Part shown: in pieces, positions 12,001 through 15,000 of the stretch
Position numbering within the stretch: position 1 is the stretch's first letter
Layout: the number at the start of each line of letters is the position of its first letter
Assembly (NCBI RefSeq): GCF_030013205.1
Contig: NZ_CP122648.1
Origin: Escherichia coli
Lineage (GTDB): Bacteria; Pseudomonadota; Gammaproteobacteria; Enterobacterales; Enterobacteriaceae
Reading direction: 5' to 3' (one strand)
DNA length: 64,000 nt
Program-made: the position numbers

Positions 12001-15000
12001 TCGGTTTCACCGACCACATGAACCTGATAGCTATGACGGGCATTCAGGGCATCAAGTACCACCTGATTGACATCGGCAAACGTCAGTTGGATACCCGCGT
12101 CTGCCAGCAGTTTACCGATAAAGCCACGACCGATATTACCTGCGCCAAAATGTAATGCTTTCATAGTATTAACCTTCATCAATGTTTTTACCCGAGAGGG
12201 CTGGGGTGAGGCTTTTCCCTCACCCAAACCCTCTCCGTGAGGAGAGGGTAGGATTGGATTACTTACGACCTGCCAGCAGTTCCAGCACTTCATCCACGCT
12301 GGTGGTGTGTGCCAGACGTTCGATGACGGACTCATCATCCAGTGCATTGGTCAGGCTGGTGATAACCTGAATGTGCTCGTTGTTACGGGCAGCAATACCA
12401 ATTACCAGACGGGCAATGTCATCTTCTTCTTCACCGAAGCGCACGCCTTCCGGGTACTGGCAGAACACCACGCCCGTTTTCAGTACGCGATCTTTCGCTT
12501 CAACCGTACCGTGCGGCACCGCGATAGACTCACCCAGATAAGTCGGGGTCAGTTTTTCACGATCCAGCATCGCCTGAACGTATTCTGGCTCAACGTAACC
12601 GCCTTTCACCAGCTGCTCGCCAGCAAAACGAATCGCTTCTTCTTTGGTGGCCGCTTTGCGACCGAGGAAGATGTTCTCCGCGCCTAGCTTGAACAGGTTA
12701 GCACTGGAATCGTCAAAGCTGTCTTTCAGACTGTCTTTCACTTTCACTTCGTTTTCAGTATGGCGCTGAGCAGCAACCAGACGTTCGGTCAGGCTGGTGT
12801 ACAGGCCGCTGTCGAGGAAGTTGGTCAGCGAAATATGCTGTGCCTGCGGAACCTGGCGCATAGCGCGTTCGGTCAGGTCACGGTGAGTGATGACCAGGTC
12901 CACATCTGGCGGCAGGTTGTTGATCGCGCTGTTAGTAACAGAAATCTGCGACAGACCTGCATCCTGAATTTTCTTACGCAGCACACCTGCGCCCATCGCA
13001 CTGGAACCCATACCGGCATCACAGGCAACGATGATTTTACGTACGTGGCTCAGGTCGTTAGTCACATCGCCTGCAGACAGCGGAGACGCACCTTTAGACT
13101 CAGCTTTCATGTCCTGCATACGACGAGTTGCTGCTTCAATATCATCTTCTTCTTTCACTTTGCTGGTTTTCAGCAGAATGGCAGAGACAACGAAGGAGAC
13201 AGCTATCGCCGCACACACACCCGCGATGTTAGCGAAGTATGCACCTTTTGGTGTCATCGCCAGTACAGCAAGGATAGAGCCCGGAGATGCCGGAGAAACC
13301 AGACCACCGCCCAGGATAGTCAGCGTGAACACGCCAGTCATACCACCGAGGATAACGGCCAGAATCAGACGCGGATTCATCAGCACATACGGGAAGTAGA
13401 TTTCGTGGATACCGCCCAGGAAGTGGATGATTGCCGCACCGCCCGCAGACTGTTTAGCGCTACCACGACCAAAGAACATGTACGCCAGCAGCACGCCCAT
13501 ACCCGGACCTGGGTTAGCTTCAATCAGGAAGAAGATGGATTTACCCAGTTCATGGGACTGCTGAATGCCCAGCGGCGAGAAGATACCGTGGTTAATGGCG
13601 TTGTTGAGGAACAGGATTTTCGCCGGTTCAACAAAGATAGACGCCAGCGGCAGCATGTCATGGACAACCATGAAGTTAACGCCCGCAGCCAGCATTTTGG
13701 ACAGGGCTTCAACAATCGGGCCAATGCCGAGGAATGCCAGAATAGCGAGGATCATCCCGATGATGCCTGCGGAGAAGTTATTCACCAGCATCTCAAAACC
13801 GGATTTGATCTTACCGTCTACCCAGCGGTCGAAGTGCTTAATGCACCAGCCGCCCAGCGGACCTGCAATCATAGAACCGAGGAACATCGGCATGTCTGCG
13901 CCGACGATAACGCCCATGGTGGTAATGGCACCGACTACGCCGCCACGTTCGCCGCCTACCAGCTTACCACCGGTATAACCGATCAGCAGCGGCAGGAGAT
14001 AAGTGATCATCGGCCCGACCAGCTTCGCCAGCGTTTCGTTCGGTAACCACCCTGTTGGAATAAATAACGCGGTGATGATACCCCACGCGATAAACGCGCC
14101 GATATTTGGCATCACCATGTTGCTGAGGAAACGACCAAAGCTTTGCACTTTGATCTTAATATCGGATGACATAAAAACACCCCTTCTTATGTTTGCTGTC
14201 GCGCAGGCTGGAAGCCCGAGGTTTTTTGTTAATGTGGCGGCAGAGGTAGCCGGACCTTGTAGATACTGCGAAATCTGGCACTGAATCGGTTAACTGTCCA
14301 GTCGACGGCCTTTTGTGTGATATCAGTCACATAAATATAGGGGGTAGAGAGGTAATTGACGTGATGCTCATCACAAAACTCTTGTGTAAAAAAGCAACAA
14401 GGCGGCGATTTTCGCTAAAAATGGCATTTAAATGTGAGTGATGTCACATTTTTGTTTTGATGGTTTGTTGAATTTTTGTGATCTGAATCACAAGATATTT
14501 TCTTACGGCGTTCACCTGATGTGATCTACAGCATGTTATGCCTTCGTCATGAAATCGTTATGTAACTAAGCAACTCATCACCTCTTAAAATTATTCTTTG
14601 GTGTTATGGCGAGAATCGCGAACCCGGATTATTGTCAAAATATCAGCCTGACTCCCTTCTGGCTGCCAGCCAAAAAACAACACCGATAAACGTGAATCCG
14701 AGGCAGATATGTTTCTAAACTATTTCGCGTTGGGAGTGCTGATCTTCGTCTTTCTGGTGATTTTTTATGGAATCATCGCGATACATGACATCCCTTATCT
14801 GATTGCCAAAAAGCGCAACCATCCCCATGCCGACGCTATTCATACGGCGGGCTGGGTGAGCCTGTTTACTCTGCATGTTATCTGGCCGTTTCTGTGGATC
14901 TGGGCGACGCTCTATCAACCGGAGCGTGGCTGGGGTATGCAGTCACATGTTACGTCGCAGGAGAAAGCGACTGACCCGGAAATCGCCGCACTTTCTGACC

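Follow-up and report, generated by a model that had tools for sequence, protein, structure and literature searches.

A probable degenerate pair of Box C (PIT/TMECO) repeats held beside mtlD in the mannitol operon of Escherichia coli and other Enterobacteriaceae

Box C, the PIT element (Hoyne et al. 2000) and the TMECO triplex motif (Holder et al. 2015, PMC4666352) are three names for a single family of repeats, described between 1992 and 2015. Each member has a pyrimidine block, a complementary purine block, a 3-nt linker and a second purine block, for which Holder et al. give the strict pattern CCCTCNCCC-N3-6-GGGNGAGGG-N3-GGGNGAGGG. The PIT definition of Hoyne et al., in the form quoted by Holder et al., asks for more than 7 perfectly matched triplets and loops of 0-10 nt. 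Published counts are 22-32 copies of the 56-bp unit and 23 strict TMECOs (Holder et al. 2015, PMC4666352). The same authors count degenerated copies as mutated family members and describe pairs reduced by partial deletion to a stable stem-loop. Known since the early 1990s, the family is still without a function, the main published idea being that it destabilizes the surrounding genome. Stem-loops that stand inside operons and have no U-tract include the REP/BIME stabilizers, such as that of malE-malF, and the 3' protective hairpins that Dar & Sorek 2018 (PMC5927463) describe in E. coli operons as a general mechanism. Intrinsic terminators and attenuators combine a GC-rich hairpin with a U run, and ERIC/IRU elements (about 127 nt) are, like Box C, enterobacterial intergenic repeats that fold when transcribed.

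In the window analysed here, a 64-kb stretch of E. coli DNA, a spacer of 94 nt (12165-12258) lies between the stop codon of mtlA and the start codon of mtlD, both genes being on the minus strand. mtlA (12259..14172, TAA at 12259-12261) encodes the mannitol PTS EIICBA of 637 residues and mtlD (11016..12164, ATG at 12162-12164) a protein of 382 residues, as judged from the ORF list and from alignment with K-12, where mtlA is annotated. The part of the spacer next to mtlD (12165..12193, minus strand) is a conserved leader, GGGUAAAAACAUUGAUGAAGGUUAAUACU, delimited from the sequence and the cross-taxon alignment. The Shine-Dalgarno sequence of mtlD, GAAGG (12173-12177), lies in the loop of a small leader hairpin (12169-12182), and an AC|AUU motif in the leader appears to fit the RNase E consensus, RN|WUU. 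No stop codon closes the mtlD frame within the spacer (ORF 11016-12347), which could suggest a separate small ORF or a longer N terminus of MtlD; both were rejected, since interspecies differences in spacer length are not multiples of three and conservation is confined to the stems. No sequence signature of an internal promoter was found in the spacer. None of 4227 Rfam families has a match there, so the spacer element is not a described RNA family.

The first-pass annotation had reported two perfect palindromes between mtlA and mtlD, and both are present. In one, GGGTGAGG (12204-12211) is complementary to CCTCACCC (12218-12225) across a loop of 6 nt; in the other, CCCTCTCC (12229-12236) is complementary to GGAGAGGG (12241-12248) across the loop GTGA. 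Both motifs are found a single time in the 64-kb window; dinucleotide shuffles give an expectation of 0.01. On the mRNA, the second palindrome is read as hairpin A (12229..12248, minus strand; CCCUCUCC-UCAC-GGAGAGGG), whose arms reach 9 nt in the inverted-repeat output (12228-12236 with 12241-12249), and the first as hairpin B (12204..12225, minus strand; GGGUGAGG-GAAAAG-CCUCACCC). Between them is a three-base linker (12226..12228, minus strand), UUU on the mRNA. A third block that the first-pass annotation did not mention, GAGAGGG (12194..12200, minus strand; CCCUCUC on the mRNA), follows hairpin B.

These parts correspond to those of Box C. Hairpin A comprises the pyrimidine block and the first purine block of the motif, the linker takes the place of the second TMECO loop, which in canonical copies is TTA or CCG, and the 5' arm of hairpin B is the second purine block of a forward Box C. 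The hairpin B loop matches the GAAAAG sequence that usually flanks canonical copies on their 3' side, and the 3' arm is part of a second Box C, inverted and truncated. The third block is a remnant of this inverted copy, whose own hairpin has collapsed to CCCTCTC|GGG. A forward unit with a T-rich linker, type A-like (CCCTCTCC-N4-GGAGAGGG-TTT-GGGTGAGGG), abuts the purine two-thirds of an inverted, type B-like unit with the linker CTG, as in TMECO 8 (type B), and this juxtaposition yields three mutually complementary blocks and a central hairpin. Inverted pairs of type A and type B are frequent in the family, and one is found in canonical form between hrpB and mrcB of K-12, with which the mtl element aligns at 85-95% identity, with deletions in the spacer and the distal hairpin. 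On sequence evidence, then, the reading of the mtl spacer element as a degenerate, collapsed inverted pair of Box C repeats is well supported.

Profile searches place the element in the same family. An nhmmer profile built from the 23 published K-12 TMECO copies has only two matches in the 128 kb searched, both of them in the mtl element (E = 0.0034 at 12238-12217, minus strand, and E = 0.2 at 12194-12211, plus strand). In other genera the orthologues match with E = 7.7e-11 to 0.07, the best of them over the full length of the profile (E = 7.7e-11 to 2e-8). Orthologues in Leclercia, Enterobacter, Cedecea and others are full canonical copies, which also match the strict TMECO pattern from end to end. 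In Escherichia, in contrast, the arms of the mtl copy are 8 nt rather than 9-10 nt, the linker is TTT and the spacer between the units has shrunk to the 6-nt loop. Because of the short arms and the TTT linker, the window copy, which reads CCCTCTCCt-cac-cGGAGAGGG-TTT-GGGTGAGGG, fails the strict pattern, agreeing with it at 8/9 positions in each of blocks 1 and 2 and at 9/9 in block 3, and the mtl copy is absent from the published list of 23 K-12 TMECOs. Such a failure concerns the search pattern, not family descent; for annotation it means that strict pattern searches miss decayed members. By the PIT definition the copy does qualify, CCCTCTCC and GGAGAGGG pairing over 8 bp with a loop of 4 and GGGTGAGG lying antiparallel to GGAGAGGG across the TTT loop. 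Read from the sequence, 8 allowed purine-motif triads (G.G:C, A.A:T, T.A:T) are present.

The first-pass annotation had also proposed that the element is distinct from REP/PU and may represent a repeat family of its own. Its separation from REP stands: the REP consensus (GCCGGATGCGGCG... / ...CTTATCCGGCCTAC) describes an imperfect palindrome of about 35 nt, and no REP core lies within 12165-12258. The family, on the other hand, is not new, being the one already known as Box C/PIT/TMECO. The motif for which a genome-wide search had been suggested, ccctctccNNNNggagaggg, occurs in exact form only at the mtl locus, and it is the parent family that is dispersed. Of 5426 E. coli genomes, 5425 contain a canonical Box C 36-mer, with a median of 19 places in each (range 1-32) and 15 in an O157:H7 genome that carries the exact window element. 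A BLAST search of the 71-nt core against the 5426 genomes returned the orthologous site only, short diverged family matches being invisible at that database size; family copies were then sought with the profile HMM and the 36-mer, whose matches overturned the reading of the element as a unique sequence. The mtl copy is intergenic and its family is multi-copy, so the absence of other genomic copies, by which the first-pass annotation would in part have recognized an incidental palindrome, is not observed.

Two folds are available to the transcribed spacer. An inverted repeat of 18 nt, 89% complementary, joins 12194-12211 with 12218-12235, and the third block can replace the upstream CCCUCUCC as the pairing partner of GGAGAGGG. 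The resulting long hairpin (12194..12235, minus strand) has 17 pairs with one internal mismatch, carries hairpin B at its tip and is the minimum-energy fold of the spacer RNA on the mRNA strand. The spacer RNA folds at -40.2 kcal/mol (z = -4.8), and 0/200 shuffles are as stable. Across 22 taxa the alternative folds differ by -0.4 +/- 2.7 kcal/mol, each having about -25 to -44 kcal/mol. A stable stem-loop thus stands between cistrons of one transcript, as in an intercistronic 3' protective hairpin. The structure is kept in the 22 taxa: over the whole alignment, a standard base pair remains at 98% of pair positions. Only 1/17 pairs is compensatory, however, and the covariation score is not above that of shuffles, so what is conserved is the sequence rather than demonstrably the RNA pairing. 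Over such divergence, compensatory changes would be expected had the hairpin alone been under constraint.

Typical members of the Box C family are called unusually unstable between strains by Holder et al. (PMC4666352), whereas the mtl copy is pinned to one place and nearly invariant while its surroundings change. The element is found directly upstream of mtlD in 21/21 sampled species of Enterobacteriaceae, a sample that leaves out Salmonella and Klebsiella proper. The 22-mer CCTCACCCCAGCCCTCTNGGGT, from its 3' half, lies 23-25 nt before the mtlD start in 117/117 assessable metagenomic occurrences. The core has a mean identity to the window of 94% across taxa, as against 55% at four-fold sites of mtlD, with MtlD itself 83-93% identical across the compared genera. 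Divergence is free in the upstream spacer and in the hairpin B loop, whose length ranges from 6 to 18 nt. Within E. coli (5426 genomes), a single copy of the core is present in 5405, and its identity reaches 99% or more in 4827. From these comparisons of sequence it is well supported that the sampled Enterobacteriaceae inherited the element from a common ancestor that had it in its mtlA-mtlD spacer, and that it has stayed beside the mtlD ribosome-binding site since. Its near-invariance at one spot in many genera suggests that the mtl operon uses it; it is apparently a selected copy of a known family, and its function is thus testable.

The first-pass annotation had further suggested that the element stabilizes mRNA and sets differential expression of mtlA and mtlD. 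This role is plausible in view of the strong conservation at the locus and of the unrelated stable hairpins, most with z of -2 or lower, that other Gammaproteobacteria and more distant Enterobacterales carry between mtlA and mtlD. As part of the mtlADR mRNA, the element would adopt one of the two nearly iso-energetic, very stable structures, and, having no U-tract, should not terminate transcription. The most likely action would be post-transcriptional: the structure would stop 3'-to-5' exonucleases and mark a fixed boundary of processing. If the AU-rich leader just downstream were cut, the mtlA mRNA would be left with the hairpin as its cap, and the stability of mtlA would then be uncoupled from that of mtlD-mtlR. 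A further effect may be protection of the mtlD ribosome-binding region, which the structure would keep from pairing with the variable, repeat-rich part of the spacer that lies upstream. By analogy with the REP/BIME stabilizers, the mtl hairpin could stop 3' exonucleases after an endonucleolytic cut; it belongs to another sequence family, without a REP consensus, and REPs adjoin it only in K-12-like strains. Action on the mtlADR mRNA as an exonuclease barrier or fixed processing boundary is the reading we prefer, tentatively, as one that may well be right.

Dar & Sorek 2018 (PMC5927463) name mtlADR only in their list of operons analysed and not as decay-regulated, and the 3'-end maps of Adams 2021 show no end in the mtlA-mtlD spacer, mtl expression being probably low under those conditions. 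Searches of papers and supplements brought up no usable transcript-end, decay or RNase E data for the spacer. Dosage of MtlD matters in both directions, since constitutive MtlD slows growth (Choe 2017) and unprocessed mannitol-1-phosphate is described as toxic in PMC11784389. The two products of this well-studied, inducible operon must for the same reasons be balanced, and a Box C copy pinned inside it is a convenient test case for whether members of the family do anything in the cell. The mtl element is also a naturally occurring hairpin through which the relative output of genes in one operon may be set.

The main alternatives to a role in the mRNA are a functionless relic and action as DNA. 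As a relic, the element would be an old Box C pair in a permissive spacer with no part in mtl expression. Its persistence would be explained if deletion were hard to achieve without harming the mtlD ribosome-binding region, or if exchange between copies kept GC-rich palindromes uniform. The published experiments that Holder et al. (PMC4666352) summarize found no function for the family, and the missing covariation, the many other repeat insertions that the spacer tolerates and a locus of one 'Klebsiella sp.' (L036), where most of the element is lost and a single hairpin A-like stem is left, all agree with a relic. It is harder to reconcile with a core that holds at 94% while four-fold sites fall to 55% and the loop and upstream spacer diverge freely, with the other Box C loci of the same comparison set, which are lineage-restricted, or with the unusual instability that Holder et al. 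ascribe to the family. Homogenization by gene conversion is not evident either, as canonical Box C copies in Enterobacter and Cedecea differ from the mtl copy of the same genome at the variable linker, an argument that is weak since it comes from the two genomes checked. We regard the relic as a somewhat doubtful explanation.

A bolder form of the functional reading is that this is the first Box C/TMECO copy taken over by its host, a locus-fixed cis-element that sets the ratio of MtlA to MtlD/MtlR and has been under purifying selection throughout the history of the Enterobacteriaceae. It would work either as a two-state RNA, in which GGAGAGGG pairs with one of two CCCUCUC blocks, that upstream or that downstream of it, or by way of a partner that recognizes the sequence. 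Such a takeover seems unlikely at present; if true, a family of repeats that has gone thirty years without a function would gain its first.

The element may instead act as DNA, its purine-rich coding strand forming an intrastrand triplex or hairpin when single-stranded in replication or transcription, with pausing and local recombination as the result; conservation would then reflect a DNA function and the instability of the neighbourhood a side effect. Eight perfect purine-motif triads can be read in the sequence, GGAGAGGG facing GGGTGAGG over a loop of 3 nt. Oligonucleotides of canonical TMECOs form triplexes in vitro, as judged by CD or NMR, and are associated with variable regions (Holder et al., PMC4666352), the spacer just upstream of the element is hypervariable, and conservation at the level of sequence rather than pairing fits a triplex code. 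DMS footprinting, however, detected no triplex in vivo, and a duplex forms once the complement is present (Holder et al., PMC4666352). REP arrays vary in copy number anyway, so the variability need not stem from the Box C part, and the locking of the element beside the mtlD start is left unexplained. Action as DNA is distinctly unlikely.

Partial termination, the other possibility raised by the first-pass annotation, would lower transcription of mtlD-mtlR relative to mtlA. A strong GC hairpin between two operon genes invites this reading, and hairpins followed by a T-run, intrinsic-terminator-like, do occur in 13/62 other spacers of the mtl operon, all told by an explicit terminator rule because the read-out of the tail after the best hairpin includes outer pairs and is unreliable. 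These true terminator-like sites are found in some non-Enterobacteriaceae, for example GCCGCCTTCAGGCGGC-CTCTTTTTAT in Pectobacterium. In the window, by contrast, a GC-rich hairpin downstream of the first gene is followed by no T/U run: the tail is GGGUAAAAACAUU with either fold, the sequence after the stem being GGGTAAAAACATT, and a consensus terminator scan that covered both strands of 10300-14700 has no terminator-like hit in the spacer. No Box C-type spacer scores as a terminator, except for an extra upstream hairpin in one locus (L021), and in the account that Holder et al. 2015 give of Hoyne & Maher 2002, PIT elements have no promoter or terminator activity and affect neither promoters nor terminators nor RNA polymerase. 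The attenuator proposal is thus abandoned here as very improbable.

A candidate binding site, for a protein or an RNA that recognizes the sequence and regulates translation of mtlD or processing of the mRNA, would suit the nearly invariant purine and pyrimidine blocks without covariation and their fixed distance from the mtlD start, but no factor is known, Rfam offers no match and the same blocks, at about 19 other places in each genome, share no gene context; this is the least credible of the explanations.

The spacer around the element is as changeable as the element is fixed. In E. coli the mtlA-mtlD spacer is 94, 228/229, 318, 419 or 520 nt long, and insertions of REP, ERIC or Box C are found in that of other genera. 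REP/BIME, ERIC and further Box C copies are gained and lost only upstream of the conserved element. ERIC copies, unrelated to the element in sequence and size, are add-ons of this kind in Citrobacter, RIT691 and Yersinia. In K-12 a BIME of two REPs lies upstream of the element as a separate 135-bp insertion; the REP cores of the window are elsewhere, at 33473-33535. The simplest origin of the 94-nt form in the window is a deletion from the 229-nt, K-12-like form, through recombination between two CCCTCTCC repeats.

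The spacer between mtlA (12259-14172, minus strand) and mtlD (11016-12164, minus strand), genes that are followed in the operon by mtlR (10429-11016, minus strand), is 94 nt long in its entirety (12165-12258). It carries the two palindromes described by the first-pass annotation, CCCTCTCC-GTGA-GGAGAGGG at 12229-12248 (hairpin A) and GGGTGAGG/CCTCACCC at 12204-12225 (hairpin B), each of which is found a single time in the window, where chance would give 0.01. An 18-nt inverted repeat, 89% complementary, is created by a third block at 12194-12200 (GAGAGGG). On the mRNA strand the order is CCCTCTCC-TCAC-GGAGAGGG-TTT-GGGTGAGGG-AAAAG-CCTCACCCC-AG-CCCTCTC-GGG, and an exact match of the element is present in an O157:H7 genome. 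The mtlD frame has no stop upstream throughout the spacer and 89 nt of mtlA, giving a 443-aa open reading frame with its ATG at 12347 (11016-12347, minus strand). This extension is judged a chance feature, since spacer lengths differ among species by non-multiples of three.

The element very probably belongs to a family first named Box C, then PIT element and finally TMECO triplex motif, as recounted by Holder et al. 2015 (PMC4666352), who give the TMECO consensus as CCCTCNCCC-N3-6-GGGNGAGGG-N3-GGGNGAGGG and count 23 strict copies in MG1655; in an independent survey, BoxC is a unit of 56 bp known from 32 copies in E. coli (PMC2267715). A search of the 64-kb window with a profile HMM of the 23 published TMECO copies gives only two matches (E = 0.0034 and 0.2), both within the element. 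The first 33 nt of the element on the mRNA strand match the Box C repeat design, while the rest, which on the plus strand reads GAGAGGG-CTG-GGGTGAGG, is the purine part of a second, inverted unit. Based on alignment, the element is 85-95% identical to the canonical inverted pair between hrpB and mrcB of K-12, the differences being deletions in the inter-unit spacer and the distal hairpin, and the loop of hairpin B, GAAAAG, is the usual 3′ flank of canonical Box C copies. Partly deleted pairs that leave a stable stem-loop are exactly of a kind described by Holder et al. 2015. Since its arms are 8 nt, the Escherichia mtl copy departs from the strict TMECO pattern at two positions, and it is absent from the published K-12 list; read from its sequence, it has the more than seven perfect triplets of the older PIT rule as quoted by Holder et al. 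The first-pass annotation had suggested a distinct repeat family other than canonical REP; the family is indeed separate from REP, but it is a known one. In the genome-wide copy search proposed there, the mtl variant itself is single-copy in E. coli genomes, while 5425 of 5426 complete genomes contain the canonical Box C 36-mer, the median being 19 places per genome, so that the family is dispersed and multi-copy.

Within E. coli the spacer varies around a constant Box C-derived part. In K-12 it is 229 nt long (5196-5424 of the K-12 locus, L001), with the same element adjoining mtlD and a 135-bp insertion made up of a BIME with two REPs and, just past the mtlA stop, an additional 12-bp hairpin, CCCACCCTCTCC-ACAT-GGAGAAGGTGGG; this hairpin is a feature of the BIME-bearing E. 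coli forms. Spacers of 94, 228/229, 318, 419 and 520 nt occur in the 5426 genomes, with 0, 2, 4, 6 and 8 REPs, respectively, and the Box C-derived part is identical in every length form. About 920 genomes, the listed O157:H7 genomes among them, cover less than 80% of the K-12 spacer form, the examples listed having the short form, and 13 of 63 E. coli-like metagenome contigs have the 94-nt form. Since the window junction AATCCTA-CCCTCTCC-TCAC has the 5′ flank of the upstream hairpin in K-12 together with the hairpin A loop, and the BIME form is present in E. albertii and one divergent Escherichia lineage, the 94-nt form would most simply be a deletion between two CCCTCTCC repeats. In strain EC1, both hairpins have an ACAT loop, a sign that they may have exchanged sequence.

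What is new is that the mtl copy is fixed at its locus, apparently under purifying selection, in contrast to a Box C family otherwise known for instability. A search with MtlA gave 80 loci, one genome per species and outside Salmonella and Klebsiella proper, and the spacer was extracted from each. The element lies immediately upstream of mtlD in all 21 sampled Enterobacteriaceae species, which belong to Escherichia, Citrobacter, Leclercia, Enterobacter, Phytobacter, Cedecea, Pseudescherichia, Pluralibacter, Mangrovibacter, Superficieibacter, Pseudocitrobacter and unnamed lineages; several have a full canonical TMECO at the mtl locus (HMM E = 7.7e-11 to 2e-8). In a locus labelled 'Klebsiella sp.' (L036), a single hairpin-A-like stem is all that remains. 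Core identity to the window averages 94% across the sampled Enterobacteriaceae; the corresponding figures are 55% for four-fold degenerate sites in the first 150 mtlD codons and 89% for the MtlD protein. The hairpin B loops, by contrast, differ in length (6 to 18 nt) and are unrelated in sequence; from the mtlA stop to the element, the spacers of different species cannot be aligned, and according to lineage this stretch holds REPs, copies of ERIC, a further Box C or different hairpins. In metagenome contigs, the 22-mer CCTCACCCCAGCCCTCTNGGGT was found at 120 loci, and in 117 of 117 assessable cases the mtlD start is 23-25 nt downstream, so this architecture is confined to the mtl locus. In 630 kb of flanking sequence, further Box C matches are few and restricted to particular lineages. 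Homogenisation with other genomic copies is the alternative to vertical descent of the mtl copy; in Enterobacter asburiae and Cedecea, non-mtl copies have the linkers TTA, CCG and TCG as against CTA in the mtl copies, a sequence difference that would weakly favour descent.

ERIC/IRU copies, recognised by the ERIC1R and ERIC2 primer sequences, are located in the 5′ halves of five mtlA-mtlD spacers (L009, L010, L030, L028 and L032), from Citrobacter werkmanii, C. youngae, Enterobacteriaceae RIT691, Yersinia aldovae and Y. artesiana. The ERIC copy is upstream of the Box C-derived element in the three loci from Enterobacteriaceae; both Yersinia loci are without the element. Downstream of mtlR in Enterobacter asburiae (L012 7186-7360) is a Box C pair with tandem repeats of about 55 nt (TTTTCTCCCTCTTCCCAAAGAGCGAGGGGACTGTACGGTGCGG...) between its units, apparently the result of tandem amplification of decayed Box C hairpins.

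The mRNA strand of the spacer folds at -40.2 kcal/mol (z = -4.8 relative to dinucleotide shuffles). In one fold, hairpins A and B are formed and the third block is free; in the other, a long hairpin (12194-12235, minus strand) is formed and the first block is free. Of these, the long hairpin has the minimum energy, and the fold with two hairpins is the centroid. Each has about -25 to -44 kcal/mol across taxa, and the two are nearly iso-energetic in every taxon (difference -0.4 ± 2.7 kcal/mol). In the aligned sequences of 22 taxa, the long hairpin has standard pairs at 98% of pair positions; 8 of its 17 pairs are invariant, only one has a compensatory change, and its covariation score is not above that of shuffles, so conservation is at the sequence level. 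One possible reason for the low covariation is that GGAGAGGG is required to match two partners; a triplex code or a binding factor are others. Holder et al. 2015 saw no triplex in vivo. A small hairpin, UUGAU-GAAG-GUUAA (12169-12182, minus strand), places the mtlD Shine-Dalgarno sequence in its loop and keeps 88% of pair positions in the 22 taxa; one-sided changes occur, for example from U-G to C-G in Enterobacter asburiae.

In more distant Enterobacterales and in other Gammaproteobacteria, the spacer has hairpins that are unrelated yet significantly stable (z <= -2 for most), and in 13 of 62 spacers of other lineages a hairpin with a T-run resembles a terminator. The operon thus seems to have a stable structure after mtlA recurrently, and in Enterobacteriaceae the Box C derivative supplies it. 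The mRNA stabiliser role put forward by the first-pass annotation is plausible. Since protective 3′ hairpins within operons are a documented E. coli mechanism (Dar & Sorek 2018, PMC5927463), the element may act on the mtlADR mRNA as a barrier to exonucleases and as a processing boundary, which is our favoured though tentative reading. Cleavage would fall in the conserved AU-rich leader of mtlD, whose ribosome-binding region could be insulated by the element. The sequence AC|AUU in this leader fits the RNase E consensus. No literature on transcripts covering the mtlA-mtlD spacer was found; mtlADR figures in Dar & Sorek 2018 only as an analysed operon, and the 3′-end maps of Adams 2021 report no end in the spacer, mtl expression probably being low there. 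MtlD is described as dosage-sensitive in both directions (Choe 2017; PMC11784389), which is a rationale for a role of the element rather than proof. Partial termination, the other role suggested at first pass, is unlikely: no terminator-like or promoter-like site is present on either strand of the spacer, the hairpin is followed by GGGUAAAAACAUU instead of a U-run, and Hoyne & Maher 2002, as cited in Holder et al. 2015, found that PIT elements neither act as promoters or terminators nor affect RNA polymerase.

Elsewhere, the spacers of Pectobacterium (L038, L076), Acerihabitans (L024) and Hafnia (L039) contain apparent intrinsic terminators, for example GCCGCCTTCAGGCGGC then CTCTTTTTATGTTTTTTT, and their sequence suggests that attenuation may occur between mtlA and mtlD in these lineages. 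The window also has a REP pair in inverted orientation at 33473-33535 (CTTATCCGGCCTAC / CTTATCAGGCCTAC), inside which an Rfam match to the sRNA ES036 (CssrF) at 33487-33529 scores 38.9 bits against a gathering threshold of 37.6; this match may simply be the REP hairpin recognised. Rfam matches to sok antitoxin RNA (52279-52430, plus strand) beside the cspA thermoregulator 5′ UTR (52713-53140, minus strand) point to a hok/sok-type locus next to cspA at 52279-53140. A 1751-aa open reading frame (3019-8274, minus strand) encodes a trimeric autotransporter adhesin with an ESPR signal, YadA head repeats, 14 stalk repeats and a YadA anchor; K-12 has no gene at its place between yibL and lldP.
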